Shown here: piece by piece, positions 32,840-47,147 of the stretch
Layout of the letters: every line of letters starts with the position of its first letter
How positions within the stretch are numbered: the stretch's first letter is position 1
Assembly (NCBI GenBank): GCA_963817895.1
Contig: CAWFQB010000014.1
Location: forward strand, 64,001 to 128,000
Direction: 5' to 3'
Source: an uncultured Chthonomonadaceae bacterium
GTDB taxonomy: Bacteria; Armatimonadota; Chthonomonadetes; Chthonomonadales; Chthonomonadaceae
Length of the DNA: 64,000 nucleotides
Program-made: the position numbers and the translations under genes
The notes under the pieces: model-generated
What the model saw: only the letters and a program-made list of their open reading frames with translations
Databases searched by the model: none
Told to the model about the DNA's origin: nothing

Positions 32840-35800
32840 TTGACACAAGAATCCACAGGACTCGCCGCCAGTTACCGGGGGCAGAGCCTGGTGCGCGCGC
32901 ATCGGCGGCGCGACCCTTGCAACGGGGCTGGTCGTGGTCCTGGCGTCGGCGCAGGCGCAGGACGCGGCAACCACGACAGCGCCAACCGCCAAACCAGGCG
33001 CCACTGCCGCCAAACCGGCAACAGCGAAGAAGCCTGCCGCGAAGAAGCCTGCCGCTAAAAAGAGCAGCAAGCAAACCTCGAAGCCGACTACAGGTAAAAG
33101 CAGCGCGGCGCAGAATACCCGTAACACCGCAGCTCCGGCAACCGGCGCGCCCGGACTGAGCATTGTGCCAATGCAGGGCAGGGGAACCGGCGGAACCAAT
33201 GTACCCGGACGCGGCGTTCCTGGTGTTCCCGGCGTACCCGGCGCGTTTCCGGGCGGCCAATTTCCGGGACGGCAGTTTCCCGGCGGTGGCGGCAGCGGTT
33301 TTAGTGGCGGGGGCAGCGGATTTGGTCAGGGCGGACGTGGAAGCGTGTTTTCGTTTGAGTTTCGCGGCACGGACATTGACAACGTTCTGAAGTTTTTTTC
33401 CAACAATTCCGGTCTGACGATTACCAAGGACCCGGCGCTGACCGGCCCGGTAACAATTCTCAGTCCTTCGCCCGTTAGTCTCGATCAGGCCTTTCGCATT
33501 TTGCAGTCCGTGCTGTATGTGCGCGGATTTACGGCAGTGCAGAGCAACGGCGTTCTGCAAATTTTGCCATTTCAAGGCGCGATAAAGAGTACGGGACTGC
33601 TCAATCCAGGCATCAATGAGGATGGAACCACGCGGGTTGATCCACGCAACCAGTTTATGACGCAGGTAATACCGATTGAGAACGCGGATGCGGACCAGTT
33701 GGCAAAGGAACTGAAAGACCTTGCCAGCCCTGGGGCCAGCCTTATTGGCAGTGTGGGAACCAACTCGCTGATTATCACGGATACAGCCAGCAATGTGGCG
33801 CGTTTCATCACGCTTGTCGAAGCGCTGGACAAGACCTCCAACAAGACAGAGCTTAAAATTTACGCGCTGACCCGCGCTGACGCTTCAACTATTGCCTCGA
33901 TTATCAACGATTTGTACAGCAAAACCACGACGCGGGGACGCAGCACAGGGGGACAGCCGGGGCCGGGACAGCCGGGTTTCAATCCGGGTAATCCGCAGGG
34001 GCAGGGGCAGCAGCAGAGCGGCAGCCGTCCCGCAGTCGTTGCGGTTGCCGAACAGGGTACGAATTCCGTTCTCGTGGTAGCGTCGCCCGATAATCAGGAG
34101 AGAATCGCTCGCGACATCATCACGCGGCTGGATGGCGACGATTCCAACCGACTGGATACCGTGACCCGCAAAATCAATTTCGCGGACGCGCAGACGATCT
34201 CGGATGAGGTGAACAGCGTTCTGTCGAATTCCCGCCCCGGCCAGGGTTCTTCGGTCAGCCCCTCGTTCCAGCAGCGCACATTCGGCGGCGGTGGCGGCGG
34301 TTTTGCCGCATTCTTCGGTGGCGGTGGCGGAGGCAGTTCCAGTACGGGCAGCACCGATCCGTTCGGCAAAGTGGTACCTGATCCGCGCACCAATACGGTT
34401 CTGATTACCGCAACCAAAGATCGCATGGCGCGTATCAACGACCTGATTGACAAATTGGATCAGGAAGTGCCGGTAGAATCAACCACGTTTGTGTTCCCGC
34501 TCAAGAATGCGAATTCTTCGGATGTTGCGCAGGCATTGAGTCAGGCTTTCGGAACCACCAGCACGAACAATCAGTTCGGAAACAACCAGAATCGGAATGG
34601 AGTTGGCACCTCCACTAACGCCAGCAACCCGTTTGGGCGGCAGGGAACCGGCAGCGGTTCGCAGCGGCAGCTTGGTTCTGTTGCGGGCGGGACGGGGTAT
34701 TGGCAGGGGCGCAGGCCGCTCCAACGTTCCTCCCGGCCCGCCGGATGCGCCTGATAACAGTGGCAATGCCGCGGGCGACGGCAGCATACAGACAGGTGGC
34801 GGCTCTGCTCTGCCGCAGGGAATTCCGGGCGTCCTGACCGATCAGGGCTTCGTTCCCACGGAACAATCCGGCAACGGCAACAATGGCGAAATATCGCGCC
34901 AGATTTTCGGCGGTTTCGGCGGCGGCGGTTTTGGTGGTGGGCAGGAGGGCAGCAGCGATTGGGACAAACCCAAACGCCGCAGTACGGGCCGGGCAGAACC
35001 GGCGGCTACTCGAACCTGCTGCAATTGCAGGGCAACGTGTTTGTCACGCCCTCGCCCGAAGGCGACAACCTGATTATCACGACCCTGCCGCAGAACTATG
35101 AGGCGGTGCGGCAGATCATTGACGCGCTGGACATCGTTCCCCGGCAGGTGATGATTGAAGTAATCATAGCCGAAGTGACGCTGGACAGCGATCAGAAATT
35201 AGGCTTCACGCTGGGCGGCAACTTCCTCAAGTTGTTCAATAGCGCCAATACCGCGCAGGGGCAGATCAATGTGCCAGCGTCAGGGATTGGCAACCGCCTT
35301 CGATCCGGCGGCGGCGGGAGCGCAATTCGTAATCAGCGGCGGAAATTACAATACGCTGATTCAGGCGCTGACGACGGACAACAAAGTCCACGTTCTTGCC
35401 ACGCCGCGCGTTTTCGCCTCCAACAACCAGGCGGCGGATATTACCATCGCGACGCAGATCCCGTTCTTGCAGGGTACGACATCAAGCGCGTTCTCGTCTG
35501 TTGTCAGCCAGACGGTGCAGACGGCGAACGTGGGTTATGACCTGACGGTAACGCCGCGCATCACGCGGCAGGGATTGGTGACAATCGCCCTGACGCAGGA
35601 AGCGAATTCGCTGGTGCGCTTCCAGACTTTGGGATCGGGCGTGAATGCGAGCGTGTACCCGGTCATCAATACGCGCAATACGGATACGACGGTCACGGTG
35701 CAGGACGGAGAAACCATCGTTATCGGCGGCTTGATTCAGGACAACCGCGCCGTGAACGTTACCAAGGTTCCCGTTCTGGGCGATATTCCCCTCATCGGGC

Positions 35801-36215
35801 AGTTCTTCCGGTCACGAGAACTGACCCGCAGCAAAACGGAACTGATGATTTTCATGACGCCGCATGTGGTCAACACAGTTGAAGAAGCGCGTCGTCTGAC
35901 CATCACCGAGGGAGCGCCCTTAACACGGCAAATTCCCGATCTGTCGCGTCAGCAGCCGAACCTGACGTTGCCGACCGTTCCCAAAGGCTACAAGCCCGAC
36001 CCGAACGCGCCTGTGATTCGCGACCCCTCCGGCAAAGTGATTCCGAACTTTGACGAGAAGAAGAACAAGAGGCACGAACGACCCGAACAAACTCAGGCCC
36101 GAAAACCATTCCCGGCACAAACGGCGGCAACGGCACAGGCACGGGCAGCGGGTACAAACAATGGAACGGAACCGGCACGGGGTCAGGAACCTCCAATCCG
36201 ACTGGAACGCCGTAA
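32840..36215 (+). CDS. gspD: Secretin GspD (several frameshifts; ends approximate)
   Basis: FEFRGTDI N0 domain, N-domains (TNSLII, DPRTNTVLI), LDIVPRQVMIEVIIAEV, LATPRV, VQDGETIVIGGLI, KVPVLGDIPLIGQFFRS, ELMIFMTPHVV. Confidence 0.9.
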
Positions 36216-36237
36216 GGATTTTACCTCAGCGCCCGAA

Positions 36238-36273
36238 CCCCTCTCCTTGCCGCGCAACGCGCCAGGAGAGGGG
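36238..36273. repeat. REP-like palindrome CCCCTCTCCT-TGCCGCGCAACGCGC-CAGGAGAGGGG
   Basis: Near-identical copies at 39714-39749 and 60439-60474. Confidence 0.85.
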
Positions 36274-36292
36274 CTTTTTAGTGTAAAAACCA

Positions 36293-36877
36293 TTAAAGGA
36301 CGCTGGTTCCGGGGGTGTGAATGGGAACGCCCTGCGCGCAAAGGGGACACTCTTCAGGGGCGAATGTCTGCGCCTGCACGGTGAGCAGGGCCTCTTGACG
36401 CGGGCCGAGAACGACCGTTCCACCGCTGCGATCTACCAGAACGGCAGTTCCGACTACAACCGCTTGATGCTTGTCAGCGAATTCCAGACATTCGCGGGTC
36501 GCGCCGCCCGTCGTCATAATGTCGTCCACAATCAGAACGCGCGTGCCGGGCGGCAACTTCAGGCCGCGCCGTAACATCCGTTCGCCATTCTCTTTTTCCG
36601 CATACAAGGCCGGTAAGCCCATTTGCCGCGCTACTTCAAAAGCCAGCAGAATACCGCCTGTTGTGGGGCCGAGAACCACTTCAACCGCATCGGCCGCGAA
36701 CCGCCGCGCAATCTCCGCGCACAGGGTTTGCACATGCTGTGGATGTTGCAACACCCAAAACTTTTCCCAATATTCATTGCTGTGCCGCCCCGAAGACAGC
36801 CGGAAATGTCCTGTCATCAGCGCGTGACTGTCTAAAAATATCTGCCGAACCTGTACTTCCTCTAATGTATCCGTCAT
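36293..36877 (-). CDS. pyrE: Orotate phosphoribosyltransferase
   Basis: GHFRLSSGRHS, GPTTGGI, PRPP-binding motif VLIVDDIMTTGG, VDRS. Confidence 0.93.
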   Translation of the reverse strand: MTDTLEEVQVRQIFLDSHALMTGHFRLSSGRHSNEYWEKFWVLQHPQHVQTLCAEIARRFAADAVEVVLGPTTGGILLAFEVARQMGLPALYAEKENGERMLRRGLKLPPGTRVLIVDDIMTTGGATRECLEFADKHQAVVVGTAVLVDRSGGTVVLGPRQEALLTVQAQTFAPEECPLCAQGVPIHTPGTSVL

Positions 36878-36937
36878 GCCTGTGTTCTCCCTGTGTGGTA
36901 CTCGGTTTGCACAGTATAGAATGAAGCCTTTATTTTG

Positions 36938-38164
36938 TCAAGATGGGGTTGATATAGAATTTTCAGTCGCGTAAGTCGCGGCGACGTTGCGCCTCGCAAC
37001 TTCCAGAACGTTGTTCTTGAACAGGTAGCCGAATCCGGCGTGTTCCAGCCGCGACACAAGTTCATGGTAGGTTGTGCCGAGAGCATCCGCAGCTGCAATC
37101 AGGTCCCAGTCTTTCGCGGCAAGCTGACTCAGCAGAAAAGCGCGGCGAGTTTGCGCGGCGGACAGGCGATACGTTTTGAGGTACTCGATTTCGCCGGTGT
37201 CGCGGACGATGGCCTCACCAAAATGATTTTCCTCCATGGGGTTCAGGCTTGTAATGAACCGCTGAAGCGTGAACGGCCCAGGCTGATACACGGCGCTGCT
37301 GTCCACGCCGCGCTCCAGCAGATTACCCGCCATGACGCCGTGATAATCGGCCCACTCAGAACGTACCTGCGTGATTGTCGAACGGAGGTCATTCAAATTG
37401 GAGATATGGTTGGCGTCAAGAGTGACTTTGACCGGGTACGTGGTATCGTATAGCAGGGCATACTGATATAGCAGTTCGCCATAGAAATCTTCCAGCAGGC
37501 CACTGTGCAGCGCGCGATAATCTTCAGGACAGGGAACAACATAAGCCGAGGCAAGGGCTTCGGCCACGAATACCAACATGCCGACCTGCCCTTCGTGTAT
37601 CTCAAACACGCGCAGGGCTTCGGCAAGTCCGGCAATGGACTGCCCACCGTAAGCGACTTCACTACGGCAGGAAAGCCCGTTTGCCAGAGTGTCACGGGAG
37701 TATTCGCTCCACGCGATTGACGGCCCGCCGAAGAACAGCGACAGAAATCCCTCCATTGCCAGATGAAGCGGCAAAAATCGCAGTTGATTGCTGCCCTGCT
37801 CCCGCTTTGCCATTCGGTGAACAAGGCGCATACTGAACGGACCAAAATCTGTCCGTTTGCCGTGCAGGGTGGAGGGCGCGAGACGGGTTCCGTATACGGA
37901 GGTTGGCTGGCCTTCGGGCGTCCATGACAGCACCATGCCATGCGGCACATAGGAGTAGTAGGCGGTATTGCGTGGTTGTCCCCCGCCGCTGTTCAACGCA
38001 ACGGCAGTCAGGTCTTCGCCATAACGATGCTGCGACAAACGCAAATCGGAACGCGAGTTATGCCGAAGCAGTGGGACAAGCCGGATCGCGCCGCAGACCT
38101 GCGAAGGCGCAAGTTCCAGACCGCTCAGGGATATATTTTGTAATAGCGTTGTGTTGCGAGTCAT
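36938..38164 (-). CDS. ARPP-2-like domain protein with C-terminal Fis-type HTH
   Basis: IRLVPL, SYVPHG, LRFLPLHLAMEGFL, YLKTYRLSAAQTRR, then LSQLAAKDWDLIAAADALG (Fis-like HTH). Family recognised from memory, not searched. Confidence 0.6.
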   Translation of the reverse strand: MTRNTTLLQNISLSGLELAPSQVCGAIRLVPLLRHNSRSDLRLSQHRYGEDLTAVALNSGGGQPRNTAYYSYVPHGMVLSWTPEGQPTSVYGTRLAPSTLHGKRTDFGPFSMRLVHRMAKREQGSNQLRFLPLHLAMEGFLSLFFGGPSIAWSEYSRDTLANGLSCRSEVAYGGQSIAGLAEALRVFEIHEGQVGMLVFVAEALASAYVVPCPEDYRALHSGLLEDFYGELLYQYALLYDTTYPVKVTLDANHISNLNDLRSTITQVRSEWADYHGVMAGNLLERGVDSSAVYQPGPFTLQRFITSLNPMEENHFGEAIVRDTGEIEYLKTYRLSAAQTRRAFLLSQLAAKDWDLIAAADALGTTYHELVSRLEHAGFGYLFKNNVLEVARRNVAATYATENSISTPS

Positions 38165-38176
38165 GGCTTGTTGCCC

Positions 38177-39696
38177 TCAACCCCCGGCCCCTTCTCCCAA
38201 AAAAGCCTGGGAGAAGGGGAGTTGTTCATCATGTGATTCTTTCTGCTGTACTGATCTAACGGGCGTTCGGAGAAAGTTGTCCACTCTTGCGGCGAGATAG
38301 GTTTCCAGTTCTGCGAGTGTGGCGGAACCATCGGAAAAACGCGCGAAGCCAAGGGAAGTTGGCAGGTCGTCAGCGTCGCGCAATCCCACAGTGGGAATGT
38401 AAGGACTGACGGCGTGGGGCGCGTAATCATCGCCTGTGAAGACCGGGTTGCAATGGACGATGGAAACCGAATGGGTCTTATCCAGACAGGTACGGAAAAT
38501 ACGCAGGGCTTCCTGAGCGCCACATGGCGGATCGTTCTCGTAGCCATCGGAAACAATTACAATAAGTTCCGGTTCCCATTGAAGCGCGTCCAGAAGGGGC
38601 ATCACGATGTTTGTCTGCCCGCGCGGTTCGACAAGGAGGGGCGATTCTGGCTGGCGTGTCCAGAAGGCGCGATACTCCCGCGACTGCCTGTTCCAGCAGA
38701 ACATGCGCGGCAAGAGCAACCCCAAGCGGACGCCTCCGTTTTTCCGATGAACCAGAACTGGAGTAGCTGCAATCCAGAATCGCAGCCACTTTGCCTGCCC
38801 GCAGCGGAGATCGGCGCAGGACCGTTTGGCTGGCTTGCCGCAAAGCATGGGCGAGTTCTTCCTGTCGCTCCCGTCGGACTTCGAGGGGCAGGGACAGAAT
38901 ATACAGAGCAAGTTTCGTCAGCGGAAGGCGTGTCCAATCCAGTTCCAATTCCACGCGCTTCATGTCCCGCGTTGCTTTTTGCAGGCGCAGTTTCTCTCCT
39001 TCTGTCATTTGCGATGCGATCCGCGCCATAAATTTTTCACGCGGTATACGATGTCTGTGCGCCAGTCCTTCAGCAATGGTATAAGGCAGGCTATAAACGG
39101 CTTCCGCGCTGTAGTGCGCCTGTCGAAACGTTTCAAACAGGGGCGTGGCGAATACCGACTGCTTGCGGAACCGGAACAGAAAAGAACTCAACTCGCGCTT
39201 CCAACTTCAGATGCGCGTGAAGGGCAATGGAGCGTACTTTACTCCGATACTTGACGGCTTCAAAGGTCAAATCGCGCTTTTGCGCCAGATAATCGCGGGC
39301 AAGGGCGCGTGTTCGGCGGTTATTGATGCCGCGCTTCCGCGCCTGTTCCCACAGTTTCCACCCCCGCTGCGGCGGCAATCCGCGAAGCGCGGCGTTGATG
39401 AGCGCGTTTTCTTCGGCGCGGTGTTCCGGGCGGGTACGGCGTCCTGTCGCCAGCAGGTTGAGAATAATCTGCGCCTGATTGAAATGGTTGATTCCTGCGG
39501 CAAGCGTCCGCGCGTACAGCAGGCGATAGTTTCCGAGAATGTACTCATGCAGAAACGCGATGCTGACGCGGGGCGAATACTTGCTGCCATAAAACTCGCG
39601 TTGCCCCGTACAGGCAAAACAGGCGTTGATAAACATGGTCAGGTCTTCCCGCGCCACCTGCGCCACACGGTCAAAATTTACTTCTTTGCTGGACAC
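38177..39696 (-). CDS. Ro60/TROVE-like helical protein with C-terminal vWA domain (two frameshifts)
   Basis: Basic helical N-region (REDL.MFINAC, INHFN, NNRRTR, AVKYR, LPYTIAEG), MIDAS motif AILDCSYS, T (GQT) and IVIVSDGYEN. Confidence 0.65.
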
Positions 39697-39768
39697 TTGA
39701 GAACCTCACTCAACCCCTCTCCTTGTCGCGCAACGCGCTAGGAGAGGGGCTATATTCAAATTTTGAGA

Positions 39769-39889
39769 GGGAGTACAGGTGAGCCATTCGGGGAAAGGCG
39801 GCGCGACTGGCTAGGACAGCTTCACAGGCTGGAGTCGGAAGTCGCGTCAAAGTCCCGCGAATGGCTTGAACAGTGTAGCATACTGCTCC
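39769..39889 (-). ncRNA. Candidate structured ncRNA (Y-RNA-like or cis leader) upstream of the Ro60-like gene
   Basis: Nested complementary segments on the + coordinates: 39770-75 with 39881-89, AGCCATTCG 39782-90 with CGAATGGCT 39858-66, GGGA with TCCC, CGCGACT 39802-08 with AGTCGCG 39840-46, CAGC with GCTG. Strand inferred from the adjacent operon. Confidence 0.55.
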
Positions 39890-40030
39890 TTGTCCCTGAC
39901 AGATGCAGGAAAGGGAAAGTTGCGCAAGTCAGGCGGAAGTAAAATCGGCAGGAAAATAGCCACACGTTGCGCAACAAAGATGTCGTAGGCTGAAGTATTG
40001 GATTTAGTGAAGAGGGGCGGACGCGACATA

Positions 40031-42659
40031 ATGCACAACGGGGATGAGGTTACATGGCAGGCGCAATGGATATGGGGTTGCGAGTCGTTGATGGATGAGA
40101 CTATTTCTGCGAATATAGAAGCAATCCAAAGTACGCCGCGCTATTTCTATTTTCGTAAAACGTTCGCTCTTGCAGAGGACGTGGACACCGCAGTTCTTCG
40201 CGCCTGTGCCGACTCGCGCTATCGTCTGTGGGTGAATGGACGGCTTGTGGGGCATGGCCCTGCCCGGAGCGATCCGGCACACCAATATTATGACATTTAT
40301 GATTTGGAACCGCTACCTGCGACCGGGCGAGAACACCGTTGCCGTCCTTGTCACGCATTATGGCATTGGAACCTGCTTTTCACGCCGGGGAAGACCAGGA
40401 CTGCTCCTGCAATTGGAAGTAGCGAAGGCGAACACCCCTCCTCTTATCAGTCGGCACGGGAACGGATTGGAAATGCGCGCCCGCGCCGTACCTGACCGGC
40501 TTTCCCCGCATGAGCATACAGCTTGCTTACCCGGAGGTATTGGATGCGCGACTGGAACCCGTCAGTTGGAACCTGCCCGGCTTTAATGATCGCGAATGGC
40601 AAAACGCAACTCTCATTGGCCCTGTCGGTACGCCCCCGTGGACAACTCTTCATCCCCGTGACATTCCCCTGCCATACTTCCGTACCGTCGCGGATATGAA
40701 GACGATACAGGTGAATGTGGTTGAAAAAGAAGAGGAGATACAAGAGACGAGATACGAGATACGAGAAGGAGAAGATTCATCCTTCATCCCTCATCCTTCA
40801 TCCTTTGCCTTCACGCCTGCGCAAGATATGGAGGCGGCGACGCGATTACAGCCTGCTTTGCCGGGAAGCGTTACGTACAAGCATCCCGCGCTGTTTACGG
40901 TTGCGCCGCAATCCGGAACGAAGGGTATTTCGGTCGTGCTGGATTTCGGGAAGGAGGTTAGCGGGTTTCCGCTGGTGGTGGTACGCAAAAGTGGCGGGGG
41001 ACGGGTGGACATCGGGTACAGCGAACGGCTGGAAACGGATGGAACAGTGAATCCCAATCGTTGGGGCGGGTGCGATGTGCATTACGCGGACAGGCTGCTG
41101 CTGCGGAGTGGGCATCAGACGTGGGAAGCGCTGGACCATCGGGCATTTCGCTATATGCGGCTGGACTTTTACGACAATCCTGAGCCGGTGGAAATGCTGG
41201 TGGAGATGCGTTTGAGCGGCTACCCTGTGGAAAAGCGCGGCGATTTCCAGTGTTCGGACGCGATCTTTGCAGCGCATCTGGGAGGTGGGCTGCTATACAA
41301 CCGAATTGTGCATGGACGATGGCTTTATGGATTGTCCCTGGCGCGAACGGGGGCAATGGCTGGGAGATGCGCGAGTGGAGGCATTGGTAGCCGCGTATGC
41401 GTTCGGGGATACCGACACTCGCCCGCAAAGCCCTGCTGCAATACCCGCAGTCGCAGGAGGAAACAGGCTGGTTTCGGGGCGTGTTTCCCGCCGACCCGCC
41501 CTTCGATACCATGCTGCCGACGTTCTGCATGATCTGGCCGGTCGCGCTGTGGGATTATTTCCTGCTGACGAATGACCGGAGTTTGCTGGAAGCCGTATGG
41601 CCCAATATGGAACGATTGATTGTCGGCTATTGAGCGGCATATGGACGAGGACGGACTGGTTGCCGATTTGCCGGGGTGGGTATTTGTGGATTGGGCGAAG
41701 GTGAATACGAAGGGAATGTCAACAGCCGTAAACGCAATGGCGGTTGACGCCCTGCAACATGCCGCCAAAATCGCCCGCGCGCTCGGTTATCCCGACAGGG
41801 GCGGCAAATGGCAGATTGCCGCCCATGACATTCGCGAAGCGGTCAACGATCTGCTGTGGGAAAGGGAACAGGGCGTTTACATTGACGGCATTGTTGAGGG
41901 AGAACTCTGCACGACGCCGTCAGCGAACAGGCGAATATTTTATGCGCCCTGGTCGGGATCGCGGATACGCAGCAGACAGAGCGCTTGCTGGGGATTATGG
42001 CAATGCACGCGTGACGCCACGTCATAAAGACGGATGTTCGTATTGCCACGCCCTACTTTGCTTTTTATCAGTTGATGCTGCTGTACAGAATGGAACGCAG
42101 GAGCAGGCAGGATGGTGGTATCTACGCGTCGCGATTGGGCGCGATGTTAGGCGCGGGCGCGACGACGTTCTGGGAGCAGTGGGGGCCACACTGGAGCCTG
42201 TGCCACGCCTGGAGCGCCGCGCCATCCTACTTCCTCATGGCGTATATGGCAGGTATCCGTCCGACGCAACCCGGCTTTGAAGAGTTCGATGTGCATCTGG
42301 AACCGCTGACATCTGACGTGGCTGCGCTGCACGGTTCCCACGCCGCACGGGGACATCGCACTGCATCGTATCACAATCGTCAGCCGCGCCCGCGTACAAG
42401 ACCCGATGGGAAATGCCATTCCCTCCGGCCCCAATTCGCCTGCCATCACCGTCAATCTCACCGTTCCCACCGGAACCGCGCGCCCATGTGCGCCTGCCGC
42501 TTGGTGACATTGCCGCGCCGACCATCACTGCTCAACGGCAAAACCATCTGGGACAAAGGCAATCCCATTGCCCCAGGCGGCGATAAATTCATCCGGGAAG
42601 AGGATTACGTCGTGTTCGCCATCATCGGCGGACGCTACCATGTGGAGATAGGTAAGTAG
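40031..42659 (+). CDS. Alpha-L-rhamnosidase-like glycoside hydrolase (GH78), frameshifted
   Basis: AQWIW, YFRKTF, ADSRYRLWVNG, LDFGKE, RAFRY, DCPWRERGQWLGD, FVDW, GATTFWE, SLCHAWS. Confidence 0.88.
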
Positions 42660-45093: not shown

Positions 45094-45157
45094 TTTAGTA
45101 TTTTGAGTTGTCAGTGAGTTATAGATTGGGTTGAAAGTGAAGATTGGAAGAAGAGTG

Positions 45158-47147
45158 ATGAGTGAGACTTATGATGTGTTGGTGATTGGGGCGGGACATG
45201 CGGGCTGCGAGGCGGCATTGGCGGCGGCGCGCATGGGCTGCCGGACGGCAATTTGCCACGCTGAATTTCGAGCGTATCGGGCATTTGCCGTGCAATTGTT
45301 CCATTGGCGGGCCGGCAAAGGGGCATCTGGCGCGGGAAGTGGACGCACTGGGCGGCGAAATGGGCCGGAACACGGACAAGACGCTGACGCACATTCGGTA
45401 TGTCGGCACGGGCAAAGGCCCTGCCGTGCAAACTCTCCGCGCCCATGCCGACAAGGAATTGTACCCGCAGGAGATGCGCCGCGTCCTGGAAACCACGCCG
45501 AACCTGACGATGCTGCAAGTGGCCGTGGAAGACCTTCTGACAAAGGATGAAGGCGGAAGGATGAAGGATGAAGACAATATAAATACATCCCTCATCCCTC
45601 ATCCTTCCGCCTTTGTCGCCGGTGTTCGTCTTGCGGATGGAACGGAGATTACGGCGAAAACTGTAGTGGTGACGACGGGGACGTTTTTGAACGGGCTGAT
45701 GCACTGCGGGGAAACGCAGACGGCGGGGGGGCGGCGTGGGGGAAGCGCACAGCGTCGGATTGTCGGGGGCGTTGCAGCGGTTGGGGTTCCGGTTGGGGCG
45801 GTTCAAGACGGGAACGACGCCGCGCATCAATCGGCGCACGGTTGATTTTGCGCGGACAGATGCGAGCAGAACGTCGGAAGATTGCCCGCCGTTTTCGTTT
45901 TTGAATGAAACGCTGAATCCCGCCGCGTCCGCTTCTGTCCGTGCTGGCAGACGCAGACGAACTACGCATACGCATGACATTATTCGCGCCAATCTGGAAC
46001 GGTCGGCGATGTATGGCGGGCGGATTGTGGGATCTGGGCCGCGCTATTGTCCAAGTATTGAGGATAAGGTAGTACGGTTTGCGGATAAGGACTCGCATCC
46101 CGTGTTTCTGGAGCAGGAGACGTGGGACGGCGACTCGATGTATGTGCAGGGCATGAGTACCAGTATGCCCGCCGACGTGCAGATCGCATTTTTGCGGACG
46201 TGCCCGGATTGGAGCAGGTAGAGATGCTGCGGCCTGGCTATGCGGTCGAGTACGACATGGTGTATCCTGACCAACTGCATCCCACGCTGGAAACCAAAAC
46301 GGTGCGCGGGCTGTTTCTGGCCGGGCAGATCAACGGCACGAGCGGCTACGAGGAGGCGGCGGCGCAGGGCATCGTGGCGGGCATCAACGCGGGTCTGCAG
46401 GCGCAGGAACGCCCGCCGCTGATTTTGGAACGGCAGGGCAGTTACATCGGCGTGTTGATAGATGATCTGGTGACAAAGGGCGTGATGGACCCGTACCGGA
46501 TGCTGACCTCGCGGGCAGAGTACCGTCTGCTGCTGCGGCACGACAACGCGGATATGCGCCTGACGCCGATTGGACGCGAGGCGGGCGTAGTGACGGACGA
46601 GCGTTGGGAGCGGTTTGAAGATAAGCGGGAAGCCATCGAGGGGGAGCGGAAGCGGTTCGCGTCTACATTCGTGTGGCCCCGGCACAGCGCGCGGCTGGAA
46701 GCGATTGGCACAAGCGGCATCGGCGAAAACAAGATAGCTCTGCTGACACTGCTGAAGCGGCCTGAACTGACGTATTCGACCCTGTCGCAACTGGCGCGGG
46801 AACTCGACCCGGACAATATACCCGGCGAGAATGTGACCAGAGCGGTTGGCGAACAGGTGGAATTACAGGTCAAATACGAGGGTTACATTCATCGGCAGGG
46901 GATGCAGGCGGAGCAGGCGATCAAAAATGGAGTCGGTAGAGATTCCCGAAGATATGGACTACGCGGTTTTGCAACTCCACTTTCTCATGAGGGACGGGAA
47001 AAATTGGGCAAAATCCGTCCGCGTTCACTGGGGCAGGCGGGGCGTATTCCCGGCCTGCGTCCCGGCGACATTCAGGTGCTCTACATCCATCTGGAACAGC
47101 GACGGCGCGGCAGCAAAACGCCGGGAGTAGTTGCCGCCGCGTCCTGA
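45158..47147 (+). CDS. mnmG: tRNA uridine-5-carboxymethylaminomethyl modification enzyme (frameshifted)
   Basis: [73 protein letters not shown]. Confidence 0.95.

Follow-up and report, generated by a model that had tools for sequence, protein, structure and literature searches.

The question raised by this locus is what joins a small structured RNA to two protein genes that follow it on the minus strand, and what such a unit might do for its bearer, an uncultured Chthonomonadaceae bacterium. The unit spans positions 36938 to 39866, plus a promoter box, of the window, i.e. the whole stretch of 64,000 nucleotides analyzed here (assembly GCA_963817895.1, contig CAWFQB010000014.1, positions 64,001 to 128,000); all positions refer to the window unless another sequence is named. 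A first-pass annotation of the letters alone had proposed a Ro60-like ribonucleoprotein system, but overlooked the real bounds of the RNA, its −10 box and an anticodon-like loop. The RNA, a predicted Ro60-type ring protein and an ARPP-2 protein with a C-terminal helix-turn-helix (HTH) very probably form one particle.

A structured RNA is indeed present, but its conserved part (39782 to 39866, minus strand) comprises about 85 nt and not the ~120 nt initially claimed. This segment is single-copy in its own genome and folds with a z-score of −4.3, which none of 200 shuffled sequences equalled. According to alignments of homologues (A3, A5) and the model R1 used for genome searches, it is a Y-like RNA of three unbranched helices. 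The 5' and 3' ends pair in a stem with one bulged pyrimidine (P1), followed by an internal loop, P2, an invariant UUCCG and P3. In A3, which holds 63 RNA sequences, 90% of the cells were paired and 235 cells were compensatory, compared to 78 after shuffling. As the invariant columns of A3 were partly set by the search pattern, the count was repeated on A5, comprising 52 distinct RNAs from 45 loci (40 found via the proteins, three via the RNA model, plus the own locus and that of the same-genus genome G002). Here, 96% of the cells were paired, compensatory changes occurred in 19 of 24 pairs and all four P3 pairs covaried, values which lean toward the model since A5 was fitted to it and related sequences share changes. 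The UUCCG motif, mostly followed by A, lies about 25 nt into the RNA; a Y-type bulged helix at UUCCGA was considered and dropped for lack of covariation. Both strands of the region fold well, and the strand was assigned because G-U pairs, the −10 box and sequencing reads agree. A hairpin region at 39880 to 39985, tried as a further part of the RNA, gained nothing over shuffled sequence (z −1.4, matched by 15 of 200 shuffles) and could not be aligned to the same-genus locus beyond the ~20 promoter-proximal nucleotides. Rfam, searched at the gathering threshold and at E ≤ 10, gave only two chance matches in the window and none for the RNA, neither there nor in four homologous loci, and no tRNA match was found in the window. 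By its sequence, the RNA is thus an uncatalogued bacterial RNA family.

An extended −10 element, TG-n-TACACT (39872 to 39880, minus strand), is located a few bases before the RNA. It was not listed by a strict −35/−10 scan of the window. Among 62 homologous RNAs, 49 have TANNNT at this fixed distance, compared to 6 to 8 in each of three control windows. In G222, an organism other than that of the window, three runs of raw reads from a single study gave reads matching the strand of the RNA, with a depth of 160–250 on RNA copy 1, 8–15 just behind it, 6–39 on copy 2, 5–90 on the ring gene and 0–11 on ARPP-2; the transcript begins at position 680, ahead of an open reading frame (ORF) of 122 aa. 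As a side observation, 38 of 147 reads of run X23, and of no other run, show an A>C difference at 1033–1034 of locus L216, where a dip in coverage starts.

The gene downstream of the RNA (38177 to 39696, minus strand; about 480 aa when intact) is broken in the window by two single-base insertions, and the fold was read from the intact homologue P0124, modelled from a 58-row alignment with a predicted local distance difference test (pLDDT) value of 86. The suggestion of a divergent Ro60-like protein is supported by this model. In Foldseek, the first 12 rows were Ro60/TROVE structures (E 3e-7 to 2e-4, template modelling score up to 0.59), and the three top rows of the VIA comparison were the Ro60 proteins of a phage (Z 16.8), Xenopus (16.2) and Deinococcus (12.5), with 393–405 residues aligned at a root-mean-square deviation (rmsd) of 4.8–5.3, while the best match to a vWA domain alone reached Z 11.3. 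The protein is thus predicted to be a Ro60-type helical ring closed by a vWA domain, in spite of only 12–15% identity to Ro60. At the sequence level this relationship is hidden: P0124 has no Pfam family at E ≤ 1, TROVE (PF05731) included, the ring-protein profile A1 did not find Ro60 among PDB sequences, a search of PDB sequences yielded nothing meaningful and NCBIfam nothing. Of 42 distant A1 hits that were scanned, 41 had no Pfam family above the cut-off and none was TROVE, so that no sequence bridge to Ro60 emerged; UniRef labels some homologues 'TROVE domain-containing'. The MIDAS (metal ion-dependent adhesion site) residues announced by the first-pass annotation are all in place between 38546 and 38774, namely DCSYS at 38760–38774, T at 38612–38614 and the D of SDG at 38546–38548. 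In the numbering of P0124, D306, S308, S310 and D381 are invariant in 58 of 58 rows, as is T/S at 359. The N-terminal part is basic (46 K+R versus 33 D+E) and contains invariant NNRRxR and KYR motifs.

Some observations concern other members of this wider fold. In the own genome, PF05731 matched a different locus only, a separate frameshifted TROVE gene (G000 C1:1545210, L039), around which 3.2 kb of sequence gave no match to Rfam or R1. Proteins of 500–550 aa (P0341–P0393) match the A1 profile with E ~1e-45 to 1e-63 and have no Pfam family above the cut-off; by sequence they are probably further hidden Ro60-fold families. In genome G120, a ring gene is truncated beside transposase-like ORFs (C1:514873-515857, L214). 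An 828-aa fusion of both proteins (P0265) was not counted, being a single case without the ring protein's last helix that may be an assembly artefact.

The second protein, encoded at 36938 to 38164 (minus strand), has the 408 aa originally given, and its start lies 12 nt past the last stop of the vWA gene. It belongs to ARPP-2 (PF22549, E 2.8e-111, residues 11–294, 371 bits at a gathering cut-off of 27) and was modelled with pLDDT 80. A Fis-type HTH had been claimed for its end, and residues 333–378 (37031 to 37168, minus strand) do match such domains: VIA rows 1–3, 5 and 6 are NtrC/NtrX/Fis DNA-binding domains (Z 4.2–4.7), the NtrC1 domain superimposing with an rmsd of 2.0 over 46 residues at a weak Z of 4.7, and Pfam gave no HTH match for the C-terminal stretch. 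For the ARPP-2 core, Foldseek found no match at E ≤ 0.001 and the best VIA hit (Z 4.7) was the HTH itself, which does not imply a new fold. Three glutamines are invariant in the family (Q22, Q191 and Q336).

How the two proteins may interact was predicted with an intact pair from locus L001. The complex scored 0.63, the best of three controls 0.00; the mark applied is reached by 116 of 157 solved pairs and 2 of 215 mismatched pairs. Contact agreement between runs was at least 83%, and the pLDDT of the partner at least 72. ARPP-2 is predicted to dock on the vWA domain beside the MIDAS, with the MIDAS serines (308–310) in the interface and residues 20–24, 184–187 and 241–269 on the side of ARPP-2. 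E186, which lies in this interface and corresponds to E188 in the protein of the window, is invariant in 70 of 70 sequences, suggesting the usual acidic ligand of a MIDAS; a metal contact is not listed by the prediction.

Homologous loci argue for the same association. A scan of GTDB for ARPP-2 yielded 28 loci from about 13 lineages of four phyla, which are not independent (11 Sorangium, 5 Catenulispora). As the co-occurrence of the two genes would require, a vWA gene is located upstream in 27 of them, in one case cut by the contig start and in another separated by ~1.9 kb of inserted sequence; L028 has no vWA gene within 6 kb of ARPP-2. The RNA motif lies upstream in all 26 loci whose contig includes the 5' region of the gene. 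A pattern scan of metagenomes, which covered 53 of 64 parts, gave 119 RNA hits, 84 of them with the ring gene directly downstream. The other 35 comprise 23 that are at chance level under R1, six that end within 100 nt of a contig end and six near-identical orphans. These orphan copies (L050, L070, L076, L121, L128, L139) come from an AT-rich lineage, are partly tandem and have no Ro-like gene downstream in the inspected flanks, i.e. 3 kb for three and 300 nt for the other three; the gene upstream of the RNA in L050 has a weak match to the Csx1 CARF domain. The RNA also tracks the gene by genome. The protein family and the RNA were searched separately in three sets of 151 genomes (453 in total, each set with its centre genome), and the RNA was confined to the 28 genomes bearing the vWA gene family. 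In cyanobacteria the two coincided in 19 genomes, while a further 11 lacked an RNA hit and had nothing closer than a distant paralogue (E 1.6e-22 or weaker); in actinomycetes they coincided in 4 genomes. In myxobacteria, 4 of 5 gene-bearing genomes had the RNA, and the fifth has a divergent copy found with 30.6 bits in a 2-kb search. These searches were strictly filtered, with 28 candidates scored per genome, and 6 of the 28 RNAs had been in the training set. All in all, the system is spread over cyanobacteria, actinomycetes, myxobacteria and planctomycetes, and more than 1000 relatives of each protein were found among 8000 scored candidates.

P3 (39811 to 39825, minus strand) is a 4-bp stem with the 7-nt loop CUGUGAA. 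The loop has seven nucleotides in 47 of the 52 RNAs of A5, and in tRNA numbering these show Y32 in 47, U33 in 45, U35 in 43 and R37 in 40 cases; variation is greatest at position 34 and least at 32, 33 and 35. This corresponds to the anticodon loop pattern Y-U-N-N-N-R-N. The P3 loops had a mean score of 4.11, compared to 4.25 for the 67 tRNA loops of the genome that the window comes from and at most −2.7 for letter-shuffled loops. Fifteen of the 47 are identical to a Tyr, Asn, Gln, Lys or Ser tRNA loop of that genome, whereas column shuffling gave a mean of 9.5 and only 1.3% of the shuffles reached 15. Tandem RNA copies in Nostoc-like loci usually differ in the loop. The P3 loop is somewhat more likely than not to act as a tRNA mimic.

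The closest known systems are the Ro60/Rsr proteins with their Y RNAs from Xenopus (1yvp), Deinococcus (2nvo, Yrn1/Yrn2) and phage phiLo (9l5y, Yrl1/Yrl2). The predicted ring closed by a vWA domain and the intact MIDAS (DxSxS, T, D) are shared with them, and so are an RNA in the range of 80–130 nt encoded upstream on the same strand, its paired ends and internal loop and the frequent occurrence of two RNAs per locus. The Ro-binding motif is given as GGUCCGA or GNCGAAN0-1G, close to the 5' end, in PMC4201824 and as CGAA in PMC12135203; UUCCG(A) resembles this CCGA/CGAA type but is not identical to it. By contrast, the low identity, the missing TROVE and Rfam Y family matches and the constant protein partner predicted to sit at the MIDAS separate the unit from Ro60/Rsr; PMC12135203 describes what the MIDAS does in Ro60 as unclear. 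YrlA combines tRNA mimicry with a Ro-bound handle, as the present RNA may do; according to bioRxiv 10.1101/312249, it imitates the D, T and acceptor arms and has no anticodon loop, whereas here only an anticodon-like arm exists, on an RNA outside Rfam. A potential anticodon arm mentioned for Yrn1 has a 6-nt loop (PMC4201824). On the protein side, the partner shares the superfamily and invariant glutamines with the ARPP proteins of systems centred on ARG (Iyer et al. 2022), in which vWA genes are among the named neighbours. That paper (PMC9503650) describes an absolutely conserved Cys and Gln and does not mention TROVE or Y RNA; the present family has no invariant Cys, an added HTH and no ARG-type families in its neighbourhood. 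RtcR carries a Fis-type HTH as well. The ARPP-2 protein, if it senses damaged tRNA like RtcR, would do so without an AAA+ or CARF domain. A description of the unit or its RNA was not found in the full-text literature, which leaves two papers by Burroughs and Aravind, the Pfam text on ARPP-2 and the supplement of PMC11109978, all unreadable to us, that may note the gene pair. By analogy, the unit is likely to work like a Ro60/Y RNA particle; it belongs neither to Pfam TROVE nor to YrlA and brings in a novel RNA as well as a partner predicted to dock.

Because the tip of the RNA resembles a tRNA anticodon loop, the particle can be read as a bait and sensor. Colicin E5, PrrC and RloC usually target tRNAs with U35. 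If Y RNAs are a guide, the ring protein would grip the irregular helix around UUCCGA and leave P3 free. The exposed loop, mostly with U35 and thus His-, Gln-, Tyr-, Asn- or Lys-like, might then be cut by anticodon nucleases and serve as decoy and signal, upon which the ARPP-2/HTH partner could, speculatively, switch a response via its HTH or process the broken RNA end. That this whole relay operates, the particle showing the loop as bait and passing tRNA-nuclease cutting on to ARPP-2/HTH, is a tentative proposal, slightly more apt to fail than to hold. Doubtful, in our view, is the broadest version, in which the system is a second, independent Ro60-type branch whose interchangeable anticodon-loop baits sense tRNA-cleaving toxins and relay through the MIDAS to the docked HTH protein.

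Several observations weigh against this interpretation. With respect to the RNA, the P3 stem has 4 bp and not 5 as in tRNA, D and T arms are missing, R37 is laxer than in tRNA (40 of 47 versus 66 of 67), and the excess of exact loop matches was not significant in A3 (8 versus 5.8, reached by 21% of the shuffles); the same loop pattern could arise from any U-turn loop. The 3' strand opposite UUCCGA does not covary, and the G222 reads show RNA copy 1 just as the 3' terminus of a longer RNA. As for the proteins, the complex was modelled on the L001 pair and not on the broken copy of the window, and the recognition helix of the HTH is acidic (T-R-E/D-E), which makes DNA binding uncertain. Finally, the Ro60–RtcB repair operon has no counterpart here: in agreement with the absence of rtcB and rtcA noted earlier next to the unit, 96 neighbour ORFs from 29 loci included no RtcB, RtcA, RtcR or other RNA-repair family, and a search of the own genome, which is 81% complete, did not reveal RtcB.

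A possible connection to translation stress comes from a sister pair in cyanobacteria (L178–L188, L212), which consists of a 450–500-aa Ro-like/vWA protein and an ARPP-1 protein and has no R1 match. ARPP-1 was confirmed for three loci, and the protein was called HTH-less from its length only. A profile comparison of ARPP-2 and the sister ARPP-1 gave a probability of 4%, though F-E and Q-G align. The exact TrcR site TGTAGTAT lies within 120 nt of the sister pair in 5 of 11 cyanobacterial loci, compared to 0.06 expected, and just beyond 120 nt in L186 and L187. As described in PMC10272220, TrcR represses genes for tRNAs and rtcB under translation stress. These sites link the wider family, and not directly the RNA-bearing class, to translation stress. 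Before the latter the site is not enriched (exact in 1 of 24 loci, with one mismatch in 4 of 24 versus 3.3 expected), a further point against the sensor, and TrcR control of this class was rejected as a general rule.

Other explanations have to be weighed against the bait. A RYPER-like quality control, in which the RNA tethers the ring to a processing factor (PNPase or ARPP-2) and the 7-nt loop is a docking site only, is rather unlikely. Such tethering is the role of characterised Y RNAs (PMC4201824; bioRxiv 10.1101/312249; PMC12135203 for phage Ro60), and the ring fold and basic N-terminal part would fit. However, the prediction has the partner binding through direct protein contacts with no RNA involved, position 34 of the loop varies between fixed neighbours, and no nuclease family recurs among the neighbouring genes.

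A stand-alone anti-phage or anti-toxin system, with ARPP-2 as an enzyme effector that the ring would keep silent as long as the RNA is uncut, appears quite unlikely. The spread is patchy (19, 4 and 5 of 151 genomes). In its own relationship, 1 of 61 genomes has a full ARPP-2 match, to which G002 adds a broken copy; among 60 relatives of the own genome, G002 alone had a match over the cut-off. ARPP proteins were described from predicted anti-ADP-ribosylation systems (PMC9503650), and a 175-kb viral contig from IMG/VR (L236, 990–5428) carries genes for ARPP-1 and a DNA polymerase beta clamp, together with an unknown ORF and a divergent Ro-like gene. The latter, with 29% identity and no R1 match, was the sole divergent locus in the viral protein scan, and the RNA pattern had no hit in viral contigs. 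On the other hand, the anti-phage role guessed in the first-pass annotation is unsupported by PADLOC, which gave no hit, and by the neighbourhood. No fourth gene is conserved, the neighbours are mostly housekeeping genes with few STAND or restriction genes, and ARG, phosphatase, Nudix, WYL and HIRAN families are absent from the 96 ORFs. Furthermore, protein identities of 45–62% across phyla indicate a slow pace for an arms-race gene, and the conserved cysteine of ARPP has no counterpart, the best Cys column reaching 29 of 70.

Real though the family is, the copy in the window is very unlikely to be a decaying pseudogene. The vWA gene is spread over three frames (39133–39696, 38478–39191 and 38177–38911, minus strand), with single-base insertions near 39195 and 38685 according to the alignment to the G002 locus, where it is a single ORF, as in other homologues. 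In G002, ARPP-2 (L215, 3838–4531) has lost ~500 nt by an internal deletion with frameshift, although the RNA and the ring gene of that locus are unbroken. However, frameshifts also split the genes for a secretin (gspD-like, 32934–36384), a rhamnosidase (39998–42659) and mnmG/gidA (45131–47147), the latter into four pieces. As such breaks abound in the window, its two frameshifts are likely assembly errors. Moreover, RNA and ARPP-2 of the window are intact, and an ARPP-2 of 80% identity exists elsewhere.

Least probable is that the RNA serves as a leader in cis by which the ring protein regulates its own operon: it lies upstream on the same strand at nearly every locus (17–226 nt from pattern end to gene match) and read depth in G222 drops ~15-fold just past it, but its 5' and 3' ends pair, inspection revealed no recurring terminator or overlap with a ribosome site, and the distance to the gene can reach 1.25 kb with an inserted gene. 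Tandem RNA pairs in 11 of 12 Nostoc-like loci, with different loops, a WD40 gene inserted between RNA and ring gene in L001, and orphans such as the second copy of G120 (C1:4114812-4114901, L208), 3.6 Mb from the operon, argue instead for an RNA acting in trans.

Other features around the unit are not part of the system. A REP-like repeat lies between the RNA and the start codon (39701 to 39752, minus strand; 105 blast hits of at least 25 nt in the genome, a further copy at 36236–36275) and a second one at the end of the Ro60-fold gene (38171 to 38219, minus strand; 106 such hits, hairpin 38188–38219); as both are genome-wide repeats, their hairpins were rejected as parts of the RNA. Overlapping the ARPP-2 stop, a near-consensus sigma-70 promoter, TTGACA-17-TATACT (36913–36941, minus strand), precedes a phosphoribosyltransferase (pyrE-like) gene at 36293–36877.

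If the broadest version above holds, the particle would be an RNA-based sensor of anticodon nucleases and would provide the first ligand for a Ro60-type MIDAS. The unit adds a Ro60-fold family missed by the Pfam TROVE model and an uncatalogued RNA family, and the uncharacterised ARPP-2 family gains a context. With a three-gene cassette, two questions become testable: which ligand the MIDAS of Ro60 binds, the prediction being a specific glutamate in ARPP-2, and for what reason the Y RNAs of bacteria imitate tRNA, since here the mimic would be the very part that anticodon nucleases cut.

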